Below the pieces are notes generated by a model that saw only the letters and a list, made by a program, of their open reading frames with translations, was not told where the DNA came from and did not search any database. From the IMG/VR virus record IMGVR_UViG_3300044641_008909: a DNA stretch of 20,000 bases, one strand, 5' to 3'. Shown piece after piece: positions 4,816 to 20,000 of the stretch. A program made the translations under genes and the position numbers. Origin of the DNA: an uncultured virus (IMG/VR IMGVR_UViG_3300044641_008909). Lineage: Duplodnaviria; Heunggongvirae; Uroviricota; Caudoviricetes. Each line of letters opens with the position of its first letter. Position 1 is the first letter of the stretch.

Positions 4816-4965
4816 ATGAAAGATTTTTTAGTTATTTGGCGAAGAGCCTTGGACTTAAATGAGAATGATCACTGCTTAACAGTGATCATTCGTACATTCT
4901 TTTGGGTGATAAATATAATTACATGTGGTTTTATTATGGCTAATTGTACAAGACATTGGAATTAA
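4816..4965 (+). CDS. 49-aa single-TM phage membrane peptide
   Basis: MKDFLVIWRRALDLNENDHCLTVIIRTFFWVINIITCGFIMANCTRHWN. The W-x-x-A-L...IIRT...IT...RHW pattern resembles a small protein common in aquatic myoviruses. GGA 7 nt upstream. Below the ORF-track cutoff. Confidence 0.7.
   Translation: MKDFLVIWRRALDLNENDHCLTVIIRTFFWVINIITCGFIMANCTRHWN
4863..4891. repeat. Perfect 12-bp inverted repeat inside the small ORF
   Basis: GAATGATCACTG-CTTAA-CAGTGATCATTC. Confidence 0.9.
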
Positions 4966-6587
4966 TTTTTTGTCATTTCGACAAACAAACTAATTTCAGG
5001 CAACATGTCAATTGTTTCTTTAATAATTTGTTTGTTTCCATTACAAAATGTTTTCTTTTCAACAACAAATCCTGCTTTTTCACCCAACGTCTTTAAACCA
5101 GCAAAATCATATGCAATCTTATGACCTTCAAATAGCAATGACCATAATTTACCTGATTCAAATTCATTTCTAGCACAGCCATCGTTAATTTCATCAAATA
5201 CATTCAATTGATTGGCTTGATAATATTTAATCAATTTATCAGCATCTGGTACTGCAATACGCAATACAGCACCTTTTTTCATGCAACGATAACATTCACT
5301 AAGGAAACTGATACCTTCTGCGACAGTCAAGTGTTCAAACATATGACTTGAATAAGCCAAATCAATAGTTTCATTTTGAAAAGGTAATGGATTTTGTGCA
5401 TTAATTGCTAAAAACTTGTATTTGTGCCTAGATGCAAAATCTTGTAAATTCAAAACATCAGTATTGATCCATCCGTAATGGAACATATTAATAAAGCTGC
5501 CAAAGTTAACCTTAAGTTTATTGTCGCCAGCAGGAATGTTGACAGCAATATTTCCACGCTCTAAGTCTTCTTTGTCAACAACCAATTGCGTTGATGGCAT
5601 TCTTTCAAGCCACCATTCCTTAGTTCTCAAAGTACAATGAGTTTTATCAAATCCATCATCATTTTCACCAAAATCAACACCATGCAAGCCACGCTTACTA
5701 ACTCGATCCATTTCTTTCAAAACAGCATCAAGATGTTCTTCTGGAATATGTTCAAAAACCGCTGTTGAAAACGCTAAATCAAATTCTTTGTCTTTGAAAT
5801 TCCAAGGAGTCTGACAAATATCCCATTCAATCACATCATTGGTAACTCTGGTTAGTTGACAATGATGACTGATTTCTAATCCTTTAGACCTAACTCCAGC
5901 ATCATTAAATTTCTTAACCATGTACCCTCTAGCAGCACCAATCTCTAGAATGGATTCGGGATTGTGTTCCATTACTTTTTGATAAGTAACCCAGTGAACA
6001 GGATAATCCCAATATCCTTCATGAGCGTAACCGCCAACTTTGCCACCACCATTGAAGTAATGTTTGTCGAATAGACTTTTGCGATCTTCTTTTTTTGGTT
6101 TTGTAACTTCAATAATCATGTCTGTTCCTAATTCCCCATGTGGTAAAACTACTATGTTTTCAAACCCTGCTTCACGCATTAGCTTGATTGCATAAACAGG
6201 ACAAAGACTGTTTCTGTGCGTGTTTTCATCATAATTCTGATCACCAAATATAATGGAAGAACTGTCATCATTCCATTCTTCTTGATTCAATACCCATTCC
6301 ATTTGTCTTTTTGTGTTAGCTGTTATAAAAACGGCTTTGCCACTATCACGAAGAATTCTAAATACTTCTGAAACAAAAAGTTTGACTTTACGCCAAGAAA
6401 GATGTTCAATACAATAGCAACTAAAAACACCATCGTATGTGGAATTTGTAAGAGGCAAAGATTGATTGAAATCAGCCACTACATCCACAGTGTCACCAGA
6501 ACGAACATCAACATTTGGACGGAAGTAAGGATTGTCTCCTCCACCCAATTCAATTACATTTTTCGTAAACGGAAAAGTATAACTCAT
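4962..6587 (-). CDS. Triple class I SAM-dependent methyltransferase fusion
   Basis: Three motif-I segments (VIELGGG; ILEIGAARG; VNFGS), each followed by a D...S...EH motif (DGVFSCYCIEH; DLAFSTAVFEH; DLAYSSHMFEH). Start at 6587 gives an ATGA overlap with the upstream GT4 stop. Confidence 0.88.
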   Translation of the reverse strand: MSYTFPFTKNVIELGGGDNPYFRPNVDVRSGDTVDVVADFNQSLPLTNSTYDGVFSCYCIEHLSWRKVKLFVSEVFRILRDSGKAVFITANTKRQMEWVLNQEEWNDDSSSIIFGDQNYDENTHRNSLCPVYAIKLMREAGFENIVVLPHGELGTDMIIEVTKPKKEDRKSLFDKHYFNGGGKVGGYAHEGYWDYPVHWVTYQKVMEHNPESILEIGAARGYMVKKFNDAGVRSKGLEISHHCQLTRVTNDVIEWDICQTPWNFKDKEFDLAFSTAVFEHIPEEHLDAVLKEMDRVSKRGLHGVDFGENDDGFDKTHCTLRTKEWWLERMPSTQLVVDKEDLERGNIAVNIPAGDNKLKVNFGSFINMFHYGWINTDVLNLQDFASRHKYKFLAINAQNPLPFQNETIDLAYSSHMFEHLTVAEGISFLSECYRCMKKGAVLRIAVPDADKLIKYYQANQLNVFDEINDGCARNEFESGKLWSLLFEGHKIAYDFAGLKTLGEKAGFVVEKKTFCNGNKQIIKETIDMLPEISLFVEMTKN

Positions 6588-7591
6588 GATTCTAACATTC
6601 CTCTCCAAGTATTAATGTAACATTCCCTTATATTTTTCCAATTGTATTTTTTAACATAAGACATTAATTCTTCTCTATAATCCCATGTATTGTTCTTATA
6701 CCAATCAATCGCTTTAGCAATACAGTTGGGATCTTTCTTCAATACTAGTTTACAATTATTATTCAAACAATCAGCAGCACCAACTCCGTATGAAGCAATA
6801 ACTGGTCTTCCAAATGTCATGGCTTCAAGAATCTCAATTCCAAAACCTTCCGTAACACTCGGTTGGACATAAACATTAATTGATTTAAAAAATTCATCTA
6901 ATGTTTTCACATAACCTAAAATATTATAATTAGCTCTACCACCAAATTGACGAATCATATGAATCAAATATGGCGATTGCTGTCCTGCAAATGTTAATAC
7001 TGCATCCTTATAATTCAATTTTGCCCAAGCCTCAATTAAATATTTAACTCCTTTATCTGGTCCAATTTGACCCAAGTACCCTACTGAAAAGGTTTTAGGA
7101 TAAGGATAGTTAACCCCTTCATAGCATCCGTGAGGTATTACAGTTGTGTTTTTGCAGCCAAATTCTTGCATTACTTTATTGCTATGTTTGCTTGGACAAA
7201 TAACAAGATCAGCATCAATATAACTTGATATATATTGATTCCATAGTACGGGATTGCTAATGTGTGGAAAGTCATAAGGAATGCCAAGGATTTTAAATTC
7301 CTCTTGGCTTGCTTTAATATCGTGGGCTGCTGCCGTATAAGAAATCTTGATACCTTTTTCTTTCAATTTTTTAGTTAATTTAGGAAATGTTCCAGCATAA
7401 AAGTGTGCTAGTTTGTATTTTTCTAAATTGGGAATATCAATTACATTTTCTGCTTCAAACGGATCTTGAGTTGGTTGAGGATTAACTACATCAATTGGAC
7501 CCAAATTGCTAAGTGCTTCCAATTCATTTTTGGTAACTGTGCCACCACCAGTTCCATTGCCAATTCTATCACAAGTGATGTAAAGAAACAT
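6584..7591 (-). CDS. GT4-family (GT-B) glycosyltransferase
   Basis: GYLGQIGPDKG and YVQPSVTEGFGIEILEAMTFGRPVI (E-x7-E motif). Confidence 0.92.
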   Translation of the reverse strand: MFLYITCDRIGNGTGGGTVTKNELEALSNLGPIDVVNPQPTQDPFEAENVIDIPNLEKYKLAHFYAGTFPKLTKKLKEKGIKISYTAAAHDIKASQEEFKILGIPYDFPHISNPVLWNQYISSYIDADLVICPSKHSNKVMQEFGCKNTTVIPHGCYEGVNYPYPKTFSVGYLGQIGPDKGVKYLIEAWAKLNYKDAVLTFAGQQSPYLIHMIRQFGGRANYNILGYVKTLDEFFKSINVYVQPSVTEGFGIEILEAMTFGRPVIASYGVGAADCLNNNCKLVLKKDPNCIAKAIDWYKNNTWDYREELMSYVKKYNWKNIRECYINTWRGMLES

Positions 7592-7651
7592 TTAATAATT
7601 TCCTTTTAAGTAAAGTTTGTCTGACTATCCGCAAATGCTAGTAAAGAAAAT

Positions 7652-8710
7652 TTACCAACCACCTGTATCAATCGCCTCATAACACAATTCTTCATACCTA
7701 TTAACCATATTTTCATAAGAAAATTGTCTTGCCCACTCAATACAGTTTTCTGACTTAATATCATTAACAGCATCAGACCTAATCAAATTTTCCATCTCAT
7801 CCTGAGTCCTAACCAAGAATCCAGTCTCACCATGCTTAACTGTTTCACGCATTGCACCATTATCCCATGCAATAACTGGCATTCCACACAACTGCGCCTC
7901 AACAGGAGCTAATCCAAATGGTTCCCTGTAGTGCAAATTGGGGTGCAGAAGGGCTTTATTTGTATTAAACCAATCTACGCATTCATTCCTGTCTTGATGC
8001 CCTATATAACGCAAATTTGGAGAAATAATACATGCGTCTTTAATCTTACGCAACAAATCTGGTTCACCAGTGATACGATCATCTCCAACTAAATCCAAAC
8101 CAACTCCACATATGTTTGCAACACTACAAGCAATATGTGGACCTTTAATAGAACTGATTCTTGCTAAAAACAAATATCTGTTATTTCTGGCTTTATTACT
8201 TCTGGAATAAAAATCAACATCAACACCATTATAAGCAACTCTTGACCCGCACTTTAAATGTGTTGTGCATACTTCTGATTGATCTTTGCTGATACAAATA
8301 AAAGAAGGAAAAGGAACAGGAGGAGCAATGCTGTACATTGTTTCTACAGGAGCATGTAGGACACCTAAGATAGGTTGTGGAAGATGACCTTCCATCTTTA
8401 AGATATAACTCCATTTTTCCCAGCTATGGTCAATAATTACATCAAATTGTGTTAGTTTTTCCCAATAACCAGAATATGCTTGTCTTTCAGATTCACCTAA
8501 TGTGGTTTCATGTAAATTTGCGTTAGTTTTTGATCCTTTAGGAGCAACAAGTGTTACATCATGACCTTTAGCATGCAAACCTTCGGCGCATTGCCAAGAA
8601 ATCATCTCCAATCCAGCATATCCAGTTGGGGGACAAGGTAAAACTGTCGTTGATATTACACAGATCTTGAGTTTTTTGGTGCTGCTTGTTGGTAAATGTG
8701 TCATTTTCAT
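7652..8710 (-). CDS. GT4-family (GT-B) glycosyltransferase
   Basis: PPTGYAGLE...GHDVTLVA, YNGVD, FLARISSIKG, EPFGLAPVEAQLCGMPVIAWDNGAMRETVKHGETGFL. Confidence 0.93.
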   Translation of the reverse strand: MKMTHLPTSSTKKLKICVISTTVLPCPPTGYAGLEMISWQCAEGLHAKGHDVTLVAPKGSKTNANLHETTLGESERQAYSGYWEKLTQFDVIIDHSWEKWSYILKMEGHLPQPILGVLHAPVETMYSIAPPVPFPSFICISKDQSEVCTTHLKCGSRVAYNGVDVDFYSRSNKARNNRYLFLARISSIKGPHIACSVANICGVGLDLVGDDRITGEPDLLRKIKDACIISPNLRYIGHQDRNECVDWFNTNKALLHPNLHYREPFGLAPVEAQLCGMPVIAWDNGAMRETVKHGETGFLVRTQDEMENLIRSDAVNDIKSENCIEWARQFSYENMVNRYEELCYEAIDTGGW

Positions 8711-9378
8711 GGTTTGATCTCCAATGGTTTGAATCCTTCAATACTGCTGCTACCAAGTCCACAATGAACGCATTGTATGCTTGTATCAACGTGGATCTTA
8801 AAGCCATGATTTCGTGCATGTTTGCAGAAGGTGAAATCTTCGCTGGTCTTTTCTAAATGGGGAAGATCTGTCCTATCACAACGCCATTCAAACCAATGAC
8901 AGCGATTGCTTAATGGTGGCAAACTCTCCAGAACAGATCTGTGAATCAAAAGACATCCAGCCCCGACATAGTCAACTTCTACAAGACTGTTAGCCGGATA
9001 TTCAGTTATCCACTGTGGACCATTTTGCGAATCTAGAAGCATTACGGGTGCTAACGGAGCATAACGCCTGTAATAGACACCACTTACGATTGGTTTGTTG
9101 TGACTTACTAATTTTGCTATTACATCAGGAGGCGGAATTACATCATCGTCTAAAAAGAAAAGCCATTCCCAGCCGAGTTCTAAGAGTTTTAAACACCCTG
9201 TATTTCTGGCATGATCAAACGGCATTCCCTGAAGTGCGGTCCACGCTCCACTTGGCATGTATATATTTCTTAAGCCAAATGCCCATGCTACTGTGCATGT
9301 TTCTCTTGTTAATATGCAGCCCAGAACTCTATTTTGATTGACTGGTGCTGTGTTGATTTGTTCCCATGATGCTGGCAT
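8707..9378 (-). CDS. GT-A fold (GT2-like) glycosyltransferase
   Basis: ARN...FFLDDDV (DxD), VSGVY, VGAGCLLIHR, SEDFTFC, H-x-G. Probable start MPASW at 9378 (ORF track 9414); stop overlaps the next ATG (ATGA). Confidence 0.85.
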   Translation of the reverse strand: MPASWEQINTAPVNQNRVLGCILTRETCTVAWAFGLRNIYMPSGAWTALQGMPFDHARNTGCLKLLELGWEWLFFLDDDVIPPPDVIAKLVSHNKPIVSGVYYRRYAPLAPVMLLDSQNGPQWITEYPANSLVEVDYVGAGCLLIHRSVLESLPPLSNRCHWFEWRCDRTDLPHLEKTSEDFTFCKHARNHGFKIHVDTSIQCVHCGLGSSSIEGFKPLEIKP

Positions 9379-9441
9379 AAAATTAATATAGAACAATTTA
9401 ATTATAAATTTCATCTCTCTTTTAAAACATAGGAGAAAAAC

Positions 9442-10611
9442 ATGAGCGAACTTATTCCGATTGATGAACGAGTTAATAAAGCAATTGATTTAGTAAAGGA
9501 AATGGAATCAGCTTTCCTTGAAATTCAAATGCCAAGAACAGAATTTGTTCTAAATAAGTTTGTAGTTGGTCAACATGACCACGATACCCTAGCATATTCT
9601 CAATGCGTTTTGGAGCTTCAAATCAAATATGATAATTTAAGGAGAGCAAAACTAGGAAGAAGAAAGATTGAAATTCAGATTAAGGAACTTGAAGACAAGG
9701 GAACTGAGATTGATCAGATTGACGCAGATCTAAAACGAATTGACCTAGAAGAGCAAGATCGTGCAGTATTGGGCGCTTTAAGAGAGTTTGAATCTCTTTA
9801 TAAGATTTGGCAAAGTTTCCCCAAGAAGTATACACGACAAGAAATTGATGCTGCTCAACCTGATTATTGGAAGCTTCGTCTAGAAAGACAAGCACAACAA
9901 GATCTTCAGGCGACTGGTAGAATTGGTGTTGGCAACAGTGAAGCACTACGCCAGATCAATCTTACTGGTACACCTAAGTTGGATCATATTCGAGAGGTCG
10001 AAAAAAAATATTTGGAAGTCGGTGATGTTAAAGTTTTAATTGTTGTTCCGACAAGGGAAAAGGCAGAGACTTTGCCTGTATTAGAGAAGTTAGCTATTCC
10101 TTCTGGTGTTCAGATTAAGTATCTTAACGTGTTTGGCAGATCGACAGCCGATGCATATAATGATGCTATTCAGACTGCTTTGGATGATGGTGCAGACTTC
10201 CTTCTTACTGTAGAAGATGATACTTTTCCTCCTGATGATGGATTCTTTAAGTTGTTGCAAAGATACAGGGAAATTGGCGATCCGAAGGTAGTTTTGGGCG
10301 GATATTATGTGAAAAAGCAAGAAAACAGGGAAGGTGTTCATATACAAATCGTCGGGGGAAAGAGACAATCCCTGACGTTATGTAACAAAGATGTTGGTGT
10401 ATATGAAGTTTACACGATTGCTCAAGGATTTACTCTTTTCCCTATGGAATGTTTTTTACAGACCGAGTATCCTTGGACTGTAACAACGGCTCATCTTACA
10501 CAAGATAGTTTCTTATCGCAAAAGCTTCGTGACAAGGGATTCAAGTTGTTGGTCGATGGTAATGTCAGGTGTCGTCATTTGGATGTGACTAGTGGAAAGT
10601 ATTATGAATGA
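9442..10611 (+). CDS. Fusion of an N-terminal coiled-coil phage domain and a C-terminal GT-A-like glycosyltransferase domain
   Basis: aa ~1-175 helical (FVVGQH...QCVLEL...YWKLRLERQAQQDLQATGRIGVGN); aa ~195-389 VLIVVPTR...AYN...LLTVEDD...GFTL...QDSFLS...CRHLD. SD AGGAG. Confidence 0.75.
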   Translation: MSELIPIDERVNKAIDLVKEMESAFLEIQMPRTEFVLNKFVVGQHDHDTLAYSQCVLELQIKYDNLRRAKLGRRKIEIQIKELEDKGTEIDQIDADLKRIDLEEQDRAVLGALREFESLYKIWQSFPKKYTRQEIDAAQPDYWKLRLERQAQQDLQATGRIGVGNSEALRQINLTGTPKLDHIREVEKKYLEVGDVKVLIVVPTREKAETLPVLEKLAIPSGVQIKYLNVFGRSTADAYNDAIQTALDDGADFLLTVEDDTFPPDDGFFKLLQRYREIGDPKVVLGGYYVKKQENREGVHIQIVGGKRQSLTLCNKDVGVYEVYTIAQGFTLFPMECFLQTEYPWTVTTAHLTQDSFLSQKLRDKGFKLLVDGNVRCRHLDVTSGKYYE

Positions 10612-10635
10612 AATTAAGTGTATTTTTGATAATTT

Positions 10636-13600
10636 TTAGATGTTATAAGGTAAGTTGCCTTGAAATCCTGATCTATTAATTCTTGGTGAAGGCATAACGA
10701 ATATTCCTCCGCTTATTGCAATACCAATTTGTTGTTGCATATTACCTGATAGGAATGCAGCCCCAGAAGATGTTCCAAGCATTCCGCTTAGATTGACTAT
10801 ATTGCCACCTGAGCCTACATATAATGGTAGTCCTTGGAATCCAGAAATTCCGTTATTTAAACCAGAGTTTTGGGCAAGTGTTCCAGTTCTTCCAACTCCT
10901 CCTAAATAAAACACTCTTCCTGTTGATCCGCTATTAACATTTCCGCTTGTCACACCAATTGCTGGCAATCTTAGTCCACTTGCTCTTTGTGCCCTTGATA
11001 TTCTGCCTCCAGAAGTAATGCATACTGCTTTGATACCTGAACACTGTTCTTGGAAAATAAACGAATCAGACAAAGGAAAATTTGTATTTAATCCTGCTGT
11101 TTGGGCGAAGTCAACGGCAGGATCAATTGAACCAGAACCAACCATGCTGCTTGTGACAATGAAGTTAGAAGAAAAATGTCCTGAATTGATTTGGCGATCA
11201 CCAATATTTCCTGATCTTATTGGATCACCAAGCAGATCTACTAGTCTTAAAAGACCGCTTGAGAAGTTACCAGAGAGTAATGTTTCACGGGCAAAATGTG
11301 ATGGACCAATTTCTCCAGATGGAATGTGTCCACTATTGACTGCTGCTCTTCTTGTTGCGCTAAACCATCTTGTAAATGGTGTATATCCTCCGATAACGCT
11401 GAATATTGAGTTTGAATTAATATTACCGCTTACAACTGAATTGTCTGCAAAGCTAGCAGCTATTATTCTATTAGCTGCTGTTGTTGTTAGTTTTCCTGAT
11501 GTGACAATTTCATTGTAACTAAATATTGGTGAACTTCCCCCATCAACACCAGCTAAATAAGCTCTTGCTTGACTTAAATTAGCAGTTGTTTGTGCAGTAG
11601 TTGTATCTGTCGAATACGTTAATTTATCTGCTGTTGAAACATAGACAGTGTTACCATTCCCGCCAGCAAAATAACCTTTTGTAGATAGTTCCGAAATCCC
11701 AGCTGGACTATATCTTGCTTGGCTTAGATTTGCAGTAGTTTGAGCAGAAGTTGTATCCGTTGAATATGTTAATTTATCTGCTGTTGCAGCATCTACTCCA
11801 GCACCAGTTAATCCACCAGCGAAATAGCCTTTTGTTGAATCACCAGAACAACCAGCTAAACGCCCTTTCGATTGACTTAGATTTGCTGTTGTTTGAGTGG
11901 CAGTTGTATCACTTGAATATGTCAACTTGTCTGCTGTTGCAACATAATTTCCAGTATTTCCTCCAGCGAAATAACCTTTTGTTGAATCGCCAGAACAACC
12001 AGCTAAACCTTCTCTTGATTGACTTAAATTAGCAGTTGTTTGAGCAGCTGTTGTATCACCAGCGTATGTTATTTTATCTGTGGTTGCAACAATTGCACCA
12101 CTATCTCCACCAGCGAAATAACCTTTTGTAATTCTCTCTGAAACTCCAGCTAATTCATATCTTGCTTGGCTTAAATTTGCTGGTGATTGAGTAATAATTG
12201 TAGCTGTTGCATATATTAATCTATCTGTTGTTGTAAGCAAAGTGGCACTAGATCCTCCAGCGAAATAGCCTTTTGTTGAATCGCCAGAACAACCAGCCAA
12301 TCCATATCTTGCTTGGCTAAGATTGGCAGTTGTTTGAACGACCGTTATATCTGTTGAATATGTTAATTTGTCTACTATTGAAAAAGAGCCAGCATTGAAT
12401 CCACCAGCAAAATATCCTGCATTTTCATAAGATTGAATGTATTGAAATGCGTTGTTATTAATTGAACCAATACCACCACCACCAGCATCAAAATAACCAG
12501 CGATAATACCGCCTGAAACAAGTTGCGAATAAGGAACAGCCCATAATCCACTTGTTAAACTATTTCTATCGACACATCCGAAGTTAAAACTTCCTGAAGA
12601 TAGTGCTGCATCTCCAAAGTGTCCACTATTAATAAATCCTGAGCTTGTATGGAATCTAAATATTTGACCGCTGGCAATAGCTCCGCTTCCAACTCCTTGA
12701 TTACTTATTTTTGTATTACCTATAATTCCGCTTCTGATACCGCCGCTTAGAATTGAATTAAAGGTTAAATTAGTAGTCAAAATTGAAGCTGCAAATATTA
12801 GACTAGCTCCTGCTGCAATTGAGGCGGGTTCTAAATTAAAAACTGACTGACTGCCTAATCTGCTACTGGCATTTACTGCTCCAGATGCAATGTTAAAACT
12901 ATTTATTTCTCCACTTGCAATGTGTGGAGAGCCAATTTTTCCACCAGAGTTAACGGCAGAACTTGCAAGAATTTGACCACTTCCAACAGATTCATTGCCA
13001 AAACTACTGCTAATAAGAAGACCAGAGCTTAGAGAAAATACTGGTATTTGTCCTGAAGCTATTGCTCCGCTATAAATTGATTGATTAGAAAGTTTGAATC
13101 TTGATATTATACCACTTCCGATTAGACCGCTGCTAACAGATTGATCAGATAAATGAAATGTTGAAATTTGACCAGAAGAAATATTTCCACTAGTTACAGC
13201 AGTATCACCAAAAACTCCACTATTTAAGATGGGATTTAGAAAACTATTTCCTCCTTGCCCAACTCCAGCCAAAAAATTTCTTGCTTGACTTAAATTTGCA
13301 GTATTTTGTGCGGCAGTTGTATCAGTTGCAAATGTTAATTTGTCTGCTGTTGTAACAAATGATCCAGTAGTTCCGCCAGCAAAATAACCTTTTGTTATTC
13401 TTTCTGAAGCACCAGCTAAACCATATATTGCTTGACTTAGATCTGCTGTTGTTTGTGCAACAGTTGTATCTGTTGAATATGTCAATTTGTCTGCTGTTGC
13501 TACAGCTGCACCTGTAGATCCACCAGCAAAATAACTTTTTGTTGATTCTTCAGAAACTCCTGCTAAGTATCCTCTTGCTTGACTTAGATTTGCGCTTGTT

Positions 13601-15744
13601 TGAGCAGTAGTTGTATCTGTTGAATACGTTAACTTATCTGCTGTTGCTACTACTGTATCAAGATCCTGATCTACGACACCACCGGCGAAATAACCTTTTG
13701 TTGACGTTCCATCAACACTAGCCGTATATCTTGCTTGACTTAAATTAGCACTTGTTTGAGCAGTAGTTGTGTCTGTTGAATATGTTAATTTATCTGCTGT
13801 TGAAACAACTGCACCTGTATATCCACCAGCGAAATAACCTTTTGTTGTTCCTTCAGAAACTCCTGCCGAAAAATATCTTGCTTGACTTAAATTTGCAGTA
13901 GTCTGGGCAACAGTTCCATCACTTGAATACGTTAATTTGTCTGCTGTTGCGACAAGAACAGCAATTCCAGTATATCCACCAGCAAAATAACCTTTTGTTG
14001 AATCTCCAGAACAACCTGCCAATCGACTTCTTGCTTGGCTTAGATTTGCGCTTGATTGAGCAGTAGTTGTATCAGTTGAATATACCAATTTATCTGTTGT
14101 TGCGGCAACTGTTGTCAGGTCAAAACCAGTATTTCCACCAGCAAAATAACCCTTTGTTAGTCCGAATATCGACGTAACAGGATTAGTTGCATTATTTGTT
14201 GCTCCAGAGGAAAAATGAAATTGTCCAATTTGACCAGAAGATATATTGCCACTAGTTATAGCATTATTGCCAATGTTTCCAGATTGAACTTGTCCAGAAG
14301 AAAGAACAATTGCTCCAGAACTAAGGTGAAATCTTCCAACCTGCCCAGACGCAATATTTCCACTAGATACAGCATTATCACCAATATTGCCAGATTTAAC
14401 TTGTCCAGAAGATAACGTAATTATAATGTGAAACTGTCCAACTTGTCCACTTGCAACATTTCCAGAAAAAATGCAATTGTTTCCAAATACTGTTGTATAT
14501 TCTTGACTTGCACCAGCCAGCCCGTTTCTTGCTTGGCTTAGATTTGCGCTTGTTTGAGCAACAGTTGTGTCTGTTGAATATGTTAGTTTATCTGCTGTAA
14601 CAACATATGCACCTGAAAATCCACCAGCAAAGTAACCTTTTGTTAATCCTTCTGAAACACCAGCTAAACCTGTCCTTGCTTGGCTTAAGTTTGCACTTGT
14701 TTGAGCAGCTGTTGTATCTGTTGAATATGTCAGCGAATAAGTCAATAGTATTCTAACTGGAGAAGCACCGCTTCCTGTTTGACCTCCTGCAAAATATCCT
14801 TTTTTTGTATTATCTGAAACAGAAGATAAAGATGATGTCGCCTGTATTAAATTGGCACTTGTTTGAGCAGCAGTAGTATCACTTGAATAAGTGATTTTAT
14901 CCGTAGTCGATACAAAAGTAAGAGCACTTGTAGCTCCTCCAGCAAAATAACCTTTATTCCTTTCTCCAGAACATCCTGTTAAAATTTGTCTTGCTTGGCT
15001 TAAATTAGCACTTGTTTGAGCAATAGTTATATCATTTGAATATGTGATTTTATCTGTTGTTGTAGAATAATTATCTGAAAATCCACCAGCAAAATAACCT
15101 TTTATTGACCCCTGAGTGACACCGCACAAATTATCTCTGGAAGAACTTAAATTTGCAGAAGTAATAGCGTTGGTAGTTTCTGCAAGATATGTCAATTTGT
15201 TTGTTATTGTGAGATTACCTCCAGCAAAATAACCTTTCGTCCCTTCTCCAGAACAGCCAGCCAATCCTTGACTTACTTCTTTGAGATTTGCAGTTGTTTG
15301 TGCGGCGGTTGTATCATTGATGTATGTGATTTTATCTGATGTTGCGACAGTAGCGCCTGAAAAGCCGCCAGCAAAAAATCCTTTTGAACCACCTGTTGCA
15401 TTATTTACCAAAATTCCAACATTATAATCATTTATTTGATATTGACCCACCTGACCAGAACCAATATTTCCACTATTTACAGCATTGTTACCAATATTTC
15501 CAGAAATAACAGAACCAGAAGCAAGAGATAATCCACCACCACCTACACCACTAGCCAAATGAAAAGATCCAATACTACCACTAGCAATATTTCCACTGAA
15601 GACAACAGGAGTACTTAATTGCCCACTTGTTACGTTTCCAGAAGATCCGACTGAAGCCCAATAAACATTATTCCAAATCCAACTTTTGGATAAGTAGTCA
15701 TATCTTTGACCTGAAGATGGTGAGCTTGGAAAATCAATTGGCAT
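10636..15744 (-). CDS. 1702-aa fibre/adhesin-like virion protein: SG-repeat shaft with three Kelch-like 6-blade modules
   Basis: N-terminal MPIDFPSSPSSGQ...WIWN..YW motif, SG-x-I-x-SG repeats, 18 GYFAGG-type repeats, C-terminal domain shared with the 708-aa neighbour. Confidence 0.75.
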   Translation of the reverse strand: MPIDFPSSPSSGQRYDYLSKSWIWNNVYWASVGSSGNVTSGQLSTPVVFSGNIASGSIGSFHLASGVGGGGLSLASGSVISGNIGNNAVNSGNIGSGQVGQYQINDYNVGILVNNATGGSKGFFAGGFSGATVATSDKITYINDTTAAQTTANLKEVSQGLAGCSGEGTKGYFAGGNLTITNKLTYLAETTNAITSANLSSSRDNLCGVTQGSIKGYFAGGFSDNYSTTTDKITYSNDITIAQTSANLSQARQILTGCSGERNKGYFAGGATSALTFVSTTDKITYSSDTTAAQTSANLIQATSSLSSVSDNTKKGYFAGGQTGSGASPVRILLTYSLTYSTDTTAAQTSANLSQARTGLAGVSEGLTKGYFAGGFSGAYVVTADKLTYSTDTTVAQTSANLSQARNGLAGASQEYTTVFGNNCIFSGNVASGQVGQFHIIITLSSGQVKSGNIGDNAVSSGNIASGQVGRFHLSSGAIVLSSGQVQSGNIGNNAITSGNISSGQIGQFHFSSGATNNATNPVTSIFGLTKGYFAGGNTGFDLTTVAATTDKLVYSTDTTTAQSSANLSQARSRLAGCSGDSTKGYFAGGYTGIAVLVATADKLTYSSDGTVAQTTANLSQARYFSAGVSEGTTKGYFAGGYTGAVVSTADKLTYSTDTTTAQTSANLSQARYTASVDGTSTKGYFAGGVVDQDLDTVVATADKLTYSTDTTTAQTSANLSQARGYLAGVSEESTKSYFAGGSTGAAVATADKLTYSTDTTVAQTTADLSQAIYGLAGASERITKGYFAGGTTGSFVTTADKLTFATDTTAAQNTANLSQARNFLAGVGQGGNSFLNPILNSGVFGDTAVTSGNISSGQISTFHLSDQSVSSGLIGSGIISRFKLSNQSIYSGAIASGQIPVFSLSSGLLISSSFGNESVGSGQILASSAVNSGGKIGSPHIASGEINSFNIASGAVNASSRLGSQSVFNLEPASIAAGASLIFAASILTTNLTFNSILSGGIRSGIIGNTKISNQGVGSGAIASGQIFRFHTSSGFINSGHFGDAALSSGSFNFGCVDRNSLTSGLWAVPYSQLVSGGIIAGYFDAGGGGIGSINNNAFQYIQSYENAGYFAGGFNAGSFSIVDKLTYSTDITVVQTTANLSQARYGLAGCSGDSTKGYFAGGSSATLLTTTDRLIYATATIITQSPANLSQARYELAGVSERITKGYFAGGDSGAIVATTDKITYAGDTTAAQTTANLSQSREGLAGCSGDSTKGYFAGGNTGNYVATADKLTYSSDTTATQTTANLSQSKGRLAGCSGDSTKGYFAGGLTGAGVDAATADKLTYSTDTTSAQTTANLSQARYSPAGISELSTKGYFAGGNGNTVYVSTADKLTYSTDTTTAQTTANLSQARAYLAGVDGGSSPIFSYNEIVTSGKLTTTAANRIIAASFADNSVVSGNINSNSIFSVIGGYTPFTRWFSATRRAAVNSGHIPSGEIGPSHFARETLLSGNFSSGLLRLVDLLGDPIRSGNIGDRQINSGHFSSNFIVTSSMVGSGSIDPAVDFAQTAGLNTNFPLSDSFIFQEQCSGIKAVCITSGGRISRAQRASGLRLPAIGVTSGNVNSGSTGRVFYLGGVGRTGTLAQNSGLNNGISGFQGLPLYVGSGGNIVNLSGMLGTSSGAAFLSGNMQQQIGIAISGGIFVMPSPRINRSGFQGNLPYNI
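11540..12425 (-). repeat. Kelch-like repeat block 3 (6 units of ~48 aa; boundaries approximate)
   Basis: Six GYFAGG...D[KR][LI]xY...ANLSQ units. Confidence 0.85.
13255..14160 (-). repeat. Kelch-like repeat block 2 (6 units; boundaries approximate)
   Basis: Six K[GS]YFAGG...DKLx[YF]...LSQA units. Confidence 0.85.
14500..15390 (-). repeat. Kelch-like repeat block 1 (6 units; boundaries approximate)
   Basis: Six KG[YF]FAGG...TY...ANL units. Confidence 0.85.
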
Positions 15745-15757
15745 AAATTAAACTCTT

Positions 15758-17884
15758 TCAAACATCATAAGGTAATGAATTAGCAAATCCACTTCTAATA
15801 ACACAAAGATTTGGCATTACAAACATACCACCACTAACAGATATTCCTATTGATTGCTGCATGTCTCCAGAAAGAAATGGTGCTTGTAAAGTTCCGCCAG
15901 CATTAGTAAATCCACTTCTACTAACAACATATCCACCAGATCCAGTATAAAGCAAAGTGCCGTCAAATCCACTAGAAATCATACCAGAAGCAGTGTTAAA
16001 TATTCTTCCATAAGAAACAACTGTACATGCTGTTCCACTTAATGCACCACTCATTGTCACACCTATTGCAGGTAATCTTAATCCAGATCCAGCTTGTGCA
16101 GCCAAAATAACACCACCAGATCCCATACACACAGCTTTAATACCAGATATTAGCTCTCCAGCATTGAAGTTTGTAGTTATAATTCTTGATGCTTGTGCTG
16201 CTACTGTTGTTTGGGTTATATGAATACTATCAATTTGACCACTGCCAATATTGGTTGCTGTTATTGCTCCATCAGCAATGTGTACGCTTCCGATTTGTCC
16301 GCTGCCAATATTACCAGAAAGTAAACCGCCTGCTGCTATATTAACCCAGCTGATAACACCGCTGGCAATGATTCCACTAACAAATACTCCACTTGCTAAA
16401 TGAACACCAGCAAATTGTCCCGATGCAATCGATCCGCTTCTTACACATCCAGAACCAAGATGAAATTCTCCAATTTGACCAGACGCTATTGCTCCACTTG
16501 TTATTGCACCTGATCCAATATTTGTACTTAAGATTGCACCTGAAGCAATGTTATTGCCATTTATTTGACCTGAAGCAATATTGGAGGCAAATACAGCAGA
16601 ATCACCTACCATGCCTGATTTTATATCACCAGATCTAATATTTGGAGTTGTAAAAATACCACTGGCAAGGTGTCCACTAGCAATTTGTCCACTTGCTATA
16701 TTACCACTGACAATAGCTCCGCTACTGATCTTGCCGCTAGTGATAGCTCCAGATGCCAAATGAAATTGTCCTATAGATCCACTCGCTATATTTCCGCTTC
16801 TTACAGAACCAGATGCAAGATGATTGATACCAATTTGTCCACTAGCAATGTTTCCACTAAGAATAGCATTATCAGCTATGGCATTGATATCAACGGCTCC
16901 TGACGCAATATTACCAGAAAGAACTGAGAAAAGACCAAGATTTCCACTTCTTACTGCTCCAGAAGTAATATGATAGCTTTGTATTGCAAATTGAGCTATG
17001 TGAAAACTTTGAATTGCACCACTTGCTATATGTAATTGACCAATTTGACCAGAAGCAACATGTGCGCTCATGACTGCGCCTGCATTTATTTTACCGCTTG
17101 TAATTGCACCGCTTGCAATGTGGAATGATCCAACTTGACCAGAGGCAATATATCCAGATGTAATTGCACCAGAAGCTATATGAAATGATCCAATTTGACC
17201 ACTTCCTATATTTGAACTAGTTACTGCACCACTTGCAAGATGAAATTGTCCAACTTGACCACTTGCTATATTTCCGCTAGTTACAGCATTATTGCCAATG
17301 TTTCCAGATTGAACTTGTCCAGAAGAAAGAACAATTGCTCCACTTGCAAGATGAAATTGTCCAACTTGACCACTTGCTATATTTCCGCTAGTTACAGCAT
17401 TATTGCCAATGTTTCCAGATTGAACTTGTCCAGAAGAAAGAGTAATTGCTCCAGAACTAAGATGAAATTGTCCAATTTGACCAGAAGCGATATTACCACT
17501 AAATATTGCATTATCACCAACATTTCCAGATTGAACTTGTCCAGAAGATAATACAATTGCACCACTAGCTATGTGAAATTGTCCAATTTGACCAGATGCG
17601 ATGTTTCCACTAGTTACAGCGTTGTTACCAATTAAACCAGAAGTCACAGAACCAGAAGTAAGACTAGCCCCACCGCCACCGCCTACACCAGAAGCTAAGT
17701 GAAAAGCTCCAATTTGCCCACTAGCAATGTTACCGCTAAAGACAACAGGAGTACTTAATTGACCACTTGTTATATTTCCAGAAGCTCCAACAGAAGCCCA
17801 ATAAATATCATTCCAAATCCAGCTTTTGGATAAGTAATCGTATCTTTGACCGGAAGATGGTGAAGTTGGAAAATCAATTGGCAT
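15758..17884 (-). CDS. 708-aa SG-repeat fibre-like virion protein, paralogue of the 1702-aa protein without propellers
   Basis: Near-identical first ~70 aa, long SGNIASGQIGQFHLASG-type repeats, shared C-terminal domain (GIKAVC...SGLRLPAIGVT...MQQ.IGI..SGG.FVMP...LPY). Confidence 0.78.
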   Translation of the reverse strand: MPIDFPTSPSSGQRYDYLSKSWIWNDIYWASVGASGNITSGQLSTPVVFSGNIASGQIGAFHLASGVGGGGGASLTSGSVTSGLIGNNAVTSGNIASGQIGQFHIASGAIVLSSGQVQSGNVGDNAIFSGNIASGQIGQFHLSSGAITLSSGQVQSGNIGNNAVTSGNIASGQVGQFHLASGAIVLSSGQVQSGNIGNNAVTSGNIASGQVGQFHLASGAVTSSNIGSGQIGSFHIASGAITSGYIASGQVGSFHIASGAITSGKINAGAVMSAHVASGQIGQLHIASGAIQSFHIAQFAIQSYHITSGAVRSGNLGLFSVLSGNIASGAVDINAIADNAILSGNIASGQIGINHLASGSVRSGNIASGSIGQFHLASGAITSGKISSGAIVSGNIASGQIASGHLASGIFTTPNIRSGDIKSGMVGDSAVFASNIASGQINGNNIASGAILSTNIGSGAITSGAIASGQIGEFHLGSGCVRSGSIASGQFAGVHLASGVFVSGIIASGVISWVNIAAGGLLSGNIGSGQIGSVHIADGAITATNIGSGQIDSIHITQTTVAAQASRIITTNFNAGELISGIKAVCMGSGGVILAAQAGSGLRLPAIGVTMSGALSGTACTVVSYGRIFNTASGMISSGFDGTLLYTGSGGYVVSRSGFTNAGGTLQAPFLSGDMQQSIGISVSGGMFVMPNLCVIRSGFANSLPYDV
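17229..17450. repeat. 111-bp coding tandem repeat (37 aa)
   Basis: 17229-17330 is identical to 17340-17441 (102 nt); more diverged copies continue to about 17620. Confidence 0.9.
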
Positions 17885-17923: not shown

Positions 17924-20000
17924 TTAAAATTGTACCCATTGCGAACTACTTCCATCATTTACATAAGTTAGTAATACTCCATCATCTGTATAATACCATC
18001 TATCTCCCTCACTAGGACTAGATGGTGCTGATGAACTAGATGTAAATTTAGCTACACTTCCAGATGAAAAATGGATAGTTCCAATTTGTCCACTACCAAC
18101 ACTTCCACTGACAATAGCGGCATTACCTATGTAGCCAGATGTAACACTACCAGAAGTAAGACTTGATCCTCCTACACCAGAAGCTAAGTGAAATTGTCCA
18201 ATTTGACCACTACCAATTGCTCCTGAAAGCAATCCGCCCGAAGCAATATGTAATGTAAATATTTGTCCAGAAGCAATATTTCCACTTACTACAGCAGCGT
18301 CACCTATGAATCCAGAAGTAATATTTCCTGAAAGTAATCTGAAAACTACGCCACTAGCAATATTTCCAGAAGTTACTTGACCAGAACCAAGGGACAATGT
18401 TGTGATTAATCCAGAAATTAAATGATTAACACCAATGCTTCCACTAGCAATACTTCCACTGACTACAGCAGCATTTCCAATATTTCCACTAGTGATAGAT
18501 CCTGAAGCAGTTGTGTTCATTACCTGAACAGCAGTTAAAATGACAGAAGGAATAGCTGGGTGAATATGACCACTAATCAAAGCTTCGGCGAATAATCTTA
18601 AATCTGCATCTGCGGAATACCAAGCAATTTCTGTATAATCACCTGAAGAAACAGATAAAACCCAGTTCCATGCTGCTACTACTTTAGCATTATTTCCAGT
18701 CAAATCAAGTCTTGTGCTACTATCAGCAACATTTGCGCCATTTCTTTTTAACCAAATATCAATTTGATCTGTGCCAGAATCTGTTTTATCAAGTTGCGCT
18801 GAAAACTGAATATTATAAGTTCCGGGGTATCCAAATACGATATTTGATCCCGATCTAACTGAAATTCCATTTGCTTCGGCAACATTATTATATGTCATTA
18901 AATTGCCAGAAGCTAATCCAACATTAGTTTGCGTTACATCTGAATATGCTGAAATGTAATATCCAAGAGGAACTTCACCTGTTGTTCCAATTGTAACCAG
19001 ATTAGGATTATTTGTGATTGATATATTTCCAGCAGCGGCAATTGTTTTGTATTCATTTGCTGTTGCTCCAGCATTGATTCCAAGAATTTGATTTGCTGTT
19101 CCAGAAATATAAGTCGGAACTAAAACACCAGAAGCAATATGATTTCTTCCTATTTGTCCTGACCCAATACTTCCAGAAATGACAGAACTGTCACCTAATT
19201 TACCACTTAAAACACCACCAGATGTAATGTTATTATTGAAAACTGCACCTGCACCAATCATTCCAGAAGTTATGATTCCAGAAGTCAAAAAGCCAACAAC
19301 AACTCCCGAAGCTAAATGAACACTTCCAATGCTTCCACTAGCAATACTTCCGCTTACTACAGCAGCATTTCCAATAAATCCAGATGTAACAGAGCCAGAA
19401 GTAAGACTTGCTCCACCACCACCTACACCAGAAGCTAAGTGAAATTGTCCAATTTGTCCACTGCCAATACTTCCACTTACTACAGCAGCGTTACCAATAA
19501 ATCCAGACTGAACTTGTCCGCTTTGTAGCACAACAGCGCCGTCTGCCATGATGTTTGTGCTAACACCACCGCCACCGCTTGTAATTTGAAGATAAAAACC
19601 TCTAGCACTACCACCTTGTTCAAAAAATCTTAATCTATCTTGATAAAGATCTATAGTAACACCAGTACCACTTAGTGTTGTGTTGGTCTGTGCTTTAGCT
19701 AATAGTATTTCTCCACCTTCATCTCCCACTGAGTTTGTTAGTGTGAGTAGATTTGCACTTAAAATTGTGCCATCCCATGTCAAACCAGATGAACCAGTTA
19801 ATGCTGCACCATTATTTACTTGAACTTGTCCAGAAGAACCACCAGTTATTGTTCCACTAGCAATGTTTCCACTAACAACGCTATTTGCAGCTAAATGTCC
19901 ACTATTAACAGCACCAGAACTCAGATGCATTCTGCCAATTTGTCCAGAAGATATATCTCCAGATTGAACTGCACCATCAGCTAAATGAACAGAACCGATA
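17924..20000 (-). CDS. SG-repeat fibre-like virion protein, 5'-truncated by the window
   Basis: Frame stays open beyond the ORF-track Met 19930 to the window edge (IGSVHLADGAVQSGDISSGQIGRMH...). Contains a GDEGGEI...RFFEQGG module (~19580-19740), a C1q/BclA-CTD-like beta-sandwich (GTYNIQFSAQL...IWLKRNG...WNWVLSVSSGDYTEIAW, ~18510-18965) and a C-terminal APSSPSEGDRWY...SSQWV motif. Confidence 0.78.
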   Translation of the reverse strand, partial: IGSVHLADGAVQSGDISSGQIGRMHLSSGAVNSGHLAANSVVSGNIASGTITGGSSGQVQVNNGAALTGSSGLTWDGTILSANLLTLTNSVGDEGGEILLAKAQTNTTLSGTGVTIDLYQDRLRFFEQGGSARGFYLQITSGGGGVSTNIMADGAVVLQSGQVQSGFIGNAAVVSGSIGSGQIGQFHLASGVGGGGASLTSGSVTSGFIGNAAVVSGSIASGSIGSVHLASGVVVGFLTSGIITSGMIGAGAVFNNNITSGGVLSGKLGDSSVISGSIGSGQIGRNHIASGVLVPTYISGTANQILGINAGATANEYKTIAAAGNISITNNPNLVTIGTTGEVPLGYYISAYSDVTQTNVGLASGNLMTYNNVAEANGISVRSGSNIVFGYPGTYNIQFSAQLDKTDSGTDQIDIWLKRNGANVADSSTRLDLTGNNAKVVAAWNWVLSVSSGDYTEIAWYSADADLRLFAEALISGHIHPAIPSVILTAVQVMNTTASGSITSGNIGNAAVVSGSIASGSIGVNHLISGLITTLSLGSGQVTSGNIASGVVFRLLSGNITSGFIGDAAVVSGNIASGQIFTLHIASGGLLSGAIGSGQIGQFHLASGVGGSSLTSGSVTSGYIGNAAIVSGSVGSGQIGTIHFSSGSVAKFTSSSSAPSSPSEGDRWYYTDDGVLLTYVNDGSSSQWVQF

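Follow-up and report, generated by a model that had tools for sequence, protein, structure and literature searches.

Tail-fibre assembly proteins and chaperones, such as Tfa of lambda, Tfa of Mu and P2, and gp38 and gp57A of T4, are encoded by a small gene that follows the distal fibre gene, and we know of no Tfa protein fused to a glycosyltransferase (GT). FlmG, the flagellin O-glycosyltransferase of Caulobacter crescentus, is composed of TPR repeats and a GT-B-type domain. In FlmG the N-terminal flagellin-binding domain sets the substrate of the transferase domain (PMC7591256). Virion glycosylation encoded by phages is described for mycobacteriophages (Freeman et al. 2023, cited in PMC12619734), in which the glycans sit on the C-termini of capsid and tail-tube subunits (PMC12619734); to our knowledge these are the only phage structural proteins shown to be glycosylated. 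Four groups of glycosyltransferases are core to a lineage of large aquatic phages whose genomes reach 307 kbp (PMC12619734, 2025), and phage glycosyltransferases are discussed mostly as modifiers of DNA or of the host surface (PMC12619734, PMC12801897). Here we analyse P0001, a gene in a 20,000-nucleotide stretch of DNA (the window) from an uncultured Caudoviricetes virus (IMG/VR IMGVR_UViG_3300044641_008909); the stretch is part of a 77.8-kb viral record that is 18% complete per CheckV. We propose, tentatively, that P0001 encodes a protein glycosyltransferase of modular build that a new docking module aims at its substrate, the phage fibre being the likely target.

In design, and not by descent, P0001 resembles FlmG. 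Both would be cytoplasmic, modular enzymes in which an N-terminal helical substrate-binding domain precedes a C-terminal transferase, with the subunit of a surface appendage as the target before assembly or export. The two proteins are non-homologous, P0001 combining a helical-hairpin module with a GT-A domain; Pfam finds no TPR family in it at E ≤ 0.01, and binding, demonstrated for FlmG, is predicted here. Like the mycobacteriophages, this phage presumably uses its own GT genes to decorate its structural proteins. It differs in that the presumed target is the receptor-binding fibre, the structure that decides which hosts can be infected, and in the fused docking domain, which the passage on mycobacteriophages in PMC12619734 does not describe. 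The gene and its parts, in window coordinates, are as follows.

9442..10611, plus strand: whole gene P0001, a fusion of N-module, linker and GT-A domain (open reading frame (ORF) with ATG start, 389 residues, 268 full-length relatives, AlphaFold2 model with a predicted local distance difference test score (pLDDT) of 89)
9442..9972, plus strand: N-domain, residues 1–177, all-helical with a long hairpin of helices 48–86 and 89–125 (models, with pLDDT 90 for the domain alone; phrog_1409; alignments A1 and A4; hhalign)
9973..10020, plus strand: flexible linker, residues 178–193 (pLDDT <50)
10024..10608, plus strand: C-domain, residues 195–389, predicted GT-A-fold glycosyltransferase (Foldseek against PDB)
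10213..10221, plus strand: E258-D259-D260, a DXD-type motif after strand 253–257 (conservation in alignment A2, secondary structure of the model)
10576..10578, plus strand: H379 in C377-x-H379-x-D381, candidate third metal ligand (near-invariance in A2)

A word-indexed search of 5.8 billion proteins returned 268 metagenomic relatives of P0001 at E ≤ 0.001. The best 120 of these 268 are nearly all 385–410 residues long, cover about 100% of the query at 55–96% identity and are nameless or annotated 'hypothetical' throughout. Because these relatives span about 100% of the query, the start and length of P0001 are supported. One homologue (P0058, 79% identical) is encoded on a 307,553-base contig at NCBI. 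When the whole protein was compared with 50,697 phage records by tblastn, no match was obtained at E ≤ 1e-5.

Using a 40-row alignment of fused relatives (A2) as input, AlphaFold2 produced a whole-protein model with a mean pLDDT of 89.2 and a predicted template modelling score (pTM) of 0.53. The low pTM despite high local confidence argues for two domains on a flexible tether with no fixed mutual orientation, and in the model this, with the disordered linker, is as expected of a tethered enzyme. The original prediction, drawn from sequence without database searches, had described a two-part protein, and the model agrees in placing a helical part (residues 1–177) and an alpha/beta part (residues 195–389) on either side of the linker. 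It had also called the N-terminal half a coiled coil. That half is indeed helical; in the model, however, its helices form an antiparallel, intramolecular hairpin packed against four or five shorter helices. Modelled alone, the N-domain reached a pLDDT of 90.0 and a pTM of 0.77.

Comparison of the whole model with the PDB by Foldseek gave 162 matches at E ≤ 0.001, all of them through the C-domain and, among the matches listed, all to GT-A glycosyltransferases. The best was 2c0n, the minimal viral GT-A A197 of Sulfolobus turreted icosahedral virus (STIV) (E = 2.1e-9; TM 0.71 normalised to the target), and further matches included the glycosyltransferase part of LH3 (E ~2e-7), ColGalT1, mimivirus R699 and ppGalNAc-T. 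The C-domain, with a block-mean pLDDT of ~90, is superposable on the solved enzymes, and by its model it has a GT-A fold, bearing the conserved E258-D259-D260 that had been predicted. It shares this fold and a DXD-type acidic motif with A197, LH3 and ColGalT1 and differs from them in that identity is only 11–17%, a level from which CAZy family membership cannot be assigned. An identity of 11–17% to solved GT-A enzymes therefore sets the fold and not the acceptor.

Six residues (E258, D260, D355, C377, H379 and D381) are nearly invariant in the 40 fused proteins of A2. Some GT-A enzymes use a DXD motif plus a C-terminal His, and by likeness to them H379 is a candidate third metal ligand. With the fold match and the near-invariance of E258, D260, H379 and D355, the modelled domain looks catalytically competent. 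Pfam GT2 models stayed below their gathering cut-offs on P0001 (PF00535, 22.3 versus 27 bits; PF13641, 19.2 versus 23.3 bits), and Glycos_transf_2 (PF00535) was passed by some fused relatives (P0219, 27.0; P0218, 24.7; P0200, 24.7). Searched alone, the C-domain has few relatives of near its own length: 12 matches were returned, mostly fragments on contigs of <2 kb, and the word-indexed search revealed no clear lineage in which this GT-A stands alone.

The N-domain belongs to a large, uncharacterised phage family made up mostly of stand-alone proteins. It has no Pfam or NCBIfam family match, and hmmscan assigns residues 27–173 to phrog_1409 (function unknown; E = 3.7e-10). Searched alone, it returned 51 matches, proteins of ~165–230 residues on contigs of up to 327 kb, with stand-alone relatives at E values from 1e-18 to 1e-104. 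A profile of the window N-domain and 19 stand-alone proteins (A1), run against 1.84 billion representatives, matched 1131 representative clusters (E ≤ 0.001), of which 522 reached E ≤ 1e-10 and 149 reached E ≤ 1e-30. We classified 144 of the best 150 A1 matches and left the remaining 6 unclassified: 117 of the 144 were ≤235 residues long, 8 were 236–320 residues and 19 exceeded 320 residues, most members of the family being stand-alone proteins of 170–220 residues. Wherever the annotation of cluster members was looked up, it read 'hypothetical protein' or gave no name.

The motifs that the original prediction had named for this half of the protein are the conserved motifs of A1: FVVGQH, Q.(C)VLEL, YW..RL.RQA and GRIGVGN. 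In A1 and in the alignment of the stand-alone family (A4), the conserved blocks read FVVGQH(D)T, Q(C)VLELQ, RE..L, YW..RL.RQA and GRIGVGN, and the N-domain also fits the looser family-wide form FVV(G/N)(Q/S)., Q..(L/M)E(L/I), YW..R(L/M)..Q(A/S) and G(R/K)(I/L).(V/A/T)GN. Conservation peaks at residues 29–60, where the frequency of the top residue averages 0.69 versus 0.45–0.54 in the distal hairpin.

We scanned IMG/VR with two N-domain motifs and obtained 71 loci. An ORF positive for the N-domain hidden Markov model (HMM) was present in 65 of them; L019, L026, L035, L062, L070 and L071 had none and were dropped. The N genes in the 65 loci comprise 24 fused to GT-A and 41 complete stand-alone genes (two in L061), with one more (L022) cut by the end of its contig. 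A gene with at least three propeller blades lies immediately upstream on the same strand (position −1) of 38 of the 41 complete stand-alone genes and at −2 for 2 of 41, leaving 1 of 41 with none; blades occur in 87 of the 910 genes called in these loci. The 38 propeller genes at −1 are uniform, 33 having six blades and 32 encoding 300–349 residues. In an independent check of 16 sampled loci against PHROGs, 13 had phrog_19111 at −1 and one had it at −2, and these propeller genes usually come after collagen-like or other tail-fibre genes. Gaps between propeller and N gene range from −56 to +30 nt, with a median of −4 (41 pairs), and when the N genes were grouped into 9 clusters at 50% identity, the −1 arrangement held in 8 of 9. 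By gene order and spacing, stand-alone N genes are co-transcribed, and probably translationally coupled, with the Kelch propeller gene of a tail module. Stand-alone homologues beside GYFAGG-repeat proteins, described in the original prediction, do exist, and its proposed search with the N-terminal half alone, tabulating neighbours, does find linkage to propeller and fibre genes.

The neighbours of stand-alone N genes are Kelch-type by profile. An alignment of stand-alone propellers from L021–L069 (A3), compared with PDB sequences, matched the designed Kelch protein SAKe6 (E = 4.6e-24), KLHL12 (E = 6e-14) and Keap1 (~2e-8); overall, solved Kelch propellers were matched at E 4.6e-24 to 1e-8. By sequence the window fibre is of the same type, with three times six blades, the GG doublet and phrog_19111 in common with the members of A3.

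Fused genes partly keep this position. Three divergent genes among the 24 (L020, L021 and L051) have the −1 arrangement, so in these the fusion occupies the place of the stand-alone gene. With 13 more, 16 of 24 fused loci carry a propeller-bearing gene within three genes, and in the window it is the immediate neighbour.

Enzymes of more than one kind are joined to the N-module. Among the 19 long (>320 residues) representatives, 17 carry the same GT-A domain, P0204 has a Methyltransf_24/RMNT_CmcI-type methyltransferase and no GT-A, and one is a low-complexity artefact; P0200, one of the 17, has both GT-A and a methyltransferase. A fusion of a fibre-associated module to sugar tailoring, as originally proposed, is thus borne out as a gene-fusion link through GT-A, methyltransferase or both, and it ties the family to sugar tailoring. 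The wider reading in the original prediction, of a fibre chaperone or adaptor whose fusion connects fibre assembly with glycosylation, is in this way supported in part. In a tree of the N-domain (138 rows, 10 partial rows excluded), all 18 fused forms fall into one subclade of 33 rows (SH-like approximate likelihood ratio test (SH-aLRT) 94), intermixed with 15 stand-alone forms. The fused and stand-alone states need at least nine changes on this tree, and because the branches concerned are weakly supported, a single origin of the fusion followed by losses, splits or fragments is possible.

The gene itself stands where the original prediction put it, on the strand opposite to a GT operon and a propeller fibre and between the two: the ORF at 9442–10611 is on the plus strand, flanked by an enzyme operon and by fibre genes that are both on the minus strand. 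These neighbours are the following.

10636..15744, minus strand: P0315, a 1701-residue fibre that carries three Kelch-type propeller cassettes of six blades each; its gene converges on the fusion gene across a 24-nt gap (translation, blade count, phrog_19111)
14494..15390, minus strand: propeller cassette 1, ~residues 119–417 of P0315 (blade positions; approximate boundaries)
13240..14160, minus strand: propeller cassette 2, ~residues 529–835 of P0315 (blade positions; approximate boundaries)
11530..12507, minus strand: propeller cassette 3, ~residues 1080–1405 of P0315 (blade positions; approximate boundaries)
15758..17884, minus strand: P0316, a 707-residue fibre paralogue without propellers, its N- and C-termini common to P0315 (translations, tail-fibre PHROGs)
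17924..19930, minus strand: third fibre-like gene (PHROGs)
8707..9414, minus strand: 234-residue GT-A paralogue of the C-domain, divergent from the fusion gene across a 27-nt spacer (C-domain HMM, E 3e-11, L001 766-1473; phrog_1574, E 1.3e-15)
4962..8710, minus strand: rest of the tailoring operon, a 547-residue, apparently multi-domain S-adenosylmethionine (SAM) methyltransferase and two GT4 (Pfam, PHROGs, NCBIfam)
4962–6608, minus strand: the methyltransferase (Pfam, PHROGs)
6584–7591, minus strand: first GT4 glycosyltransferase (Pfam, PHROGs)
7652–8710, minus strand: second GT4 glycosyltransferase (Pfam, PHROGs)

P0315 contains 18 full KGYFAGG blades of ~49 residues in three groups of six, set within a fibre built of SGNIxSGQIGxFH repeats, and matches phrog_19111 in five stretches (E = 4e-106).

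From this arrangement we propose, tentatively and with slightly less than even confidence, that the N-domain docks on the propeller or fibre and so keeps a tailoring enzyme tethered there while the fibre is assembled. The product of the window gene would be a soluble, modular tailoring enzyme. In its stand-alone form the N-module is made together with Kelch-type propeller proteins of the tail-fibre module and would most likely bind them as a docking or assembly factor; in one subclade a flexible stretch of ~15 residues joins it to a predicted metal-dependent GT-A, and in relatives its fusion partner is a sugar-type methyltransferase, or both enzymes. In the window, the N-domain would hold the enzyme on the neighbouring propeller-bearing fibre (10636–15744), the tethered GT-A would add a sugar to that fibre in the cytoplasm before virions leave the cell, and extension and methylation of the glycan would fall to the divergent GT-A/GT4/GT4/methyltransferase operon. 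The reasoning is as follows. Since the stand-alone N gene is co-transcribed, and probably translationally coupled, with a Kelch propeller gene, its product most likely acts on or with the propeller. Since the same module is tied to enzymes that require uridine diphosphate (UDP)-sugars or SAM, it presumably acts inside the cell during assembly and not on the released virion, and its partner is presumably what those enzymes are meant to reach. Synteny and enzyme tethering together lead us to read the window gene as a fibre-docked glycosyltransferase, and suggest that this phage directs its sugar decoration to the fibres with which it binds hosts. Whatever goes beyond synteny, fusion and fold we infer: physical binding, acceptor and donor sugar, and an effect, if any, on how the host is recognised.

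Several observations weigh against the proposal. The loci were gathered through the very N-domain motifs whose neighbourhood was then counted, with simple, naive gene calls and a blade HMM that started from the fibre of the window itself and was refined by iteration over these loci; and the loci are redundant (the 9 clusters above), so that the independent observations are few. Eight of the 24 fused loci have no propeller gene in the fetched stretch: L002, L003, L004 and L008 have little flank or end inside an adjacent fibre gene, and L015, L017, L018 and L027 have fuller flanks. The fusion gene of the window is convergent with the fibre gene, not co-directional. A GT lies within two genes in 2 of the 16 sampled stand-alone loci; most lack a nearby GT, so the basal role of the N-module is not glycosylation. 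The likeness of the C-domain to LH3, ColGalT1 and ppGalNAc-T is at the generic GT-A level (12–17% identity) and does not identify an acceptor. Finally, in T4-like cyanophages the phrog_1409 gene follows genes for phrog_1417 and phrog_1604 proteins, which are not clear Kelch propellers: phrog_1417 shows one blade-like segment at a weak hhalign probability (14%), with two or three weak blade-HMM matches per region. Co-folding of the L039 propeller (332 residues, A3) with the L039 N protein (181 residues, A4) gave scores of 0.20 and 0.28 against a mark of 0.32, in a run without controls, and speaks neither for binding nor against it.

The cyanophage genes are distant homologues. At E ≤ 10, tblastn of the N-terminal half against phage records had given only weak cyanophage matches, which profile comparison later upheld: hhalign of A4 against PSSM4_034 gave a probability of 98% (E = 2e-13, 140 columns). 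By these profiles the N-family is distantly related to phrog_1409, which corresponds to the cyanomyovirus gene T4-GC353 (for example P-SSM4 PSSM4_034, S-RIM2 SWUG_00027 and S-CAM4 gp162). As with the N genes, T4-GC353 sits in the fibre/structural region of its genomes; unlike the stand-alone N proteins, its products have 250–280 residues and an extra C-terminal tail and are hypothetical in all annotations, and unlike P0001 they are never fused to a GT in the records examined. The proteomic-data column for T4-GC353 is blank in the supplements of PMC3037559 (file 2), and the three phages with virion proteomes (S-SM1, S-PM2 and Syn9) apparently lack the gene, so virion proteomics is uninformative on it.

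The N-module has a second neighbour that recurs, a phrog_1604/phrog_2618-like gene (L041, L031, L073–L075). The order of genes is propeller, phrog_1604-like, N in L041 and phrog_1417, phrog_1604, phrog_1409 in T4-like cyanophages.

The docking proposal can be carried further, to a version that we regard as doubtful yet worth stating. Here the N-module would be a dedicated Kelch-blade docking domain widespread in aquatic phages and, in the fused clade, the aiming part of a self-contained fibre-glycosylation system that starts glycans on the blades, with the operon extending and methylating them. Glycans would start on Ser/Thr-rich blade loops (TYSTDTT.AQTSANLSQ) or on a nearly invariant blade Lys, and the phage would chemically tune or mask its own receptor-binding propellers. 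A TIGR02466-family gene in the closest relatives, together with the likeness to LH3 and ColGalT1, would allow a collagen-like route of hydroxylation followed by glycosylation.

Two observations touch on this version. In A3 propellers a Lys in DKxTF of each blade is nearly invariant (K55, K105, K156, K209, K258 and K305 of the L039 protein); this Lys may have a structural role, or be a modification site that recurs from blade to blade. The closest relatives (L002–L016) have a gene of 196–222 codons between the fusion gene and the fibre (for example L002:2091–2687), and the L002 member matches TIGR02466 (NCBIfam, E = 2e-33), which we take to be a 2-oxoglutarate (2OG)-oxygenase-like family; tblastn found no copy of this gene in the window's 77.8-kb contig.

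Gene position would also suit an assembly role. Stand-alone N proteins resemble Tfa, gp38 and gp57A in size (~175–200 residues), in co-expression and in following a propeller or receptor-binding gene directly (38 of 41). The N-module could then be a fibre or propeller assembly chaperone, with the fused GT acting on another acceptor (a host envelope glycan, a lipid carrier or phage DNA) and the fusion serving only co-expression or co-localisation at the assembly site. We consider this unlikely. A place just after a fibre gene is the classical one for a tail-fibre assembly protein, the N gene directly follows the fibre-module gene with ends that overlap or nearly do, and most stand-alone loci have no GT. 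In the literature, phage GTs are often assigned to modification of DNA or the host surface (PMC12619734, PMC12801897). Yet the fusion has been kept over wide divergence with both halves intact (55–96% identity; 17 of 144 representatives bear GT-A), and three enzyme combinations on one module are hard to explain without a functional link between partner and enzyme. Neither the N-domain nor the stand-alone members match any known tail-fibre assembly family in Pfam, PHROGs or NCBIfam, and, unlike the Tfa types, the N-domain is all-helical with a long hairpin and would partner a Kelch propeller instead of the trimeric tip of a fibre.

The N-module might instead be a structural part of the virion, an adaptor whose hairpin anchors small propellers to the tail fibre, with the virion bearing the GT-A, perhaps to bind carbohydrate or as an enzyme domain of the particle. 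The stand-alone propellers, at ~310–330 residues, have only ~25 residues outside their six blades and so need an attachment partner, and a conserved core with a more variable hairpin suits an adaptor. However, fusion to enzymes that depend on SAM (the methyltransferase) or on nucleotide sugars (the GT, its metal-site residues conserved) makes little sense outside the cell, and the propellers of the window are already built into the 1701-residue fibre, which makes the adaptor quite improbable in our judgement.

Least probable, and in our view very unlikely, is that the hairpin is a mere oligomerisation or scaffold domain of a glycan-synthesis complex and the propeller neighbourhood reflects only shared late expression: the fold searches do return only generic helical hairpins (Z ~10) and zero PDB matches by Foldseek at E ≤ 0.001, but the best-conserved part of the domain is the polar motifs at the base of the hairpin (residues 29–60) and not the hairpin, and −1 linkage to one particular gene family far exceeds what shared timing would give.

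Those fold searches were as follows. With the N-domain model as query, Foldseek matched nothing in the PDB at E ≤ 0.001, and the N-domain profile against PDB sequences reached a best E of 0.11. A wide VIA-align search returned only generic helical hairpins (ESCRT-III, prefoldin, BBSome and others) at Z 8.7–10.3, under the tool's own meaningful level for helical proteins. Among predicted viral structures (BFVD, Foldseek), matches at E 2e-5 to 1e-4 were to uncharacterised proteins only, among them proteins from Synechococcus phages S-ShM2 and S-SKS1 and from Ralstonia phage RP12. In the ESM Atlas, residues 1–185 had no usable match and P0161 matched only nameless clusters, at 0.75–0.76. A Cys/His catalytic site in the N-domain (H45, C55) was considered and dropped; the aligned residues in the P-SSM4 homologue are Gln and Ala.

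Our literature search found no paper on GYFAGG-type motifs, on this module, or on Kelch and bacteriophage receptor-binding beta-propellers; T4-GC353/PSSM4_034 was not found in main texts and is only listed as hypothetical. The titles and abstracts of the listed papers on Kelch proteins, phages and tail fibres do not describe this system. A helical family of more than 1000 clusters, with no Pfam model and a function-unknown PHROG and with the conserved cyanophage gene T4-GC353 among its members, is now tied to Kelch-propeller tail proteins, and what was a vague co-occurrence of propeller fibres and tailoring enzymes in aquatic phages becomes a direct question of binding and fibre glycosylation. 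If the docking proposal is true, it would explain how protein glycosylation by phages can be targeted to a substrate, and would help to annotate hundreds of tail-module genes now called hypothetical.

Among the neighbouring genes, the longer paralogue P0315 is of the P0316 type with the three six-blade Kelch cassettes placed between SGNIxSGQIGxFH stretches, and comparison of the two sequences suggests modular insertion of receptor-binding propellers. Residues 603–666 of the third fibre-like protein weakly match a PHROG annotated 'L-shaped tail fiber protein assembly' (E = 8.7e-4), and the C-terminus of this protein (17924–19930) may be an intramolecular chaperone-type end. The 547-residue protein at 4962–6608 has methyltransferase-domain matches in three separate stretches (~residues 30–110, 210–306 and 395–469), an indication that the tailoring operon includes a multi-domain methylase. 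A scan of 9200–10800 for promoters and terminators gave counts no higher than in shuffled sequences.

The remainder of the 77.8-kb record encodes a DNA polymerase III (Pol III) alpha subunit, a DnaB-type helicase, gp32-like and RecA-like proteins, ThyX and PhoH, as well as PrkA/DUF444/SpoVR, ribosomal protein S21 and IF3; this content of replication genes, the PrkA trio, S21 and IF3 indicates a large phage. The DnaE-type Pol III alpha is split (35153–40689 of the record), with the PHP domain and the start of the core in 35153–36496 and the remainder in 38221–40689, and between the halves lie two ORFs on the opposite strand, of 450 and 97 residues, without a Pfam match. The PrkA, DUF444 and SpoVR genes stand together at 29167–34046 (E = 5e-78, 2e-61 and 5e-97), and genes of translation and folding, for ribosomal protein S21, IF3 and a Cpn10-like protein, lie at 44796–48271.

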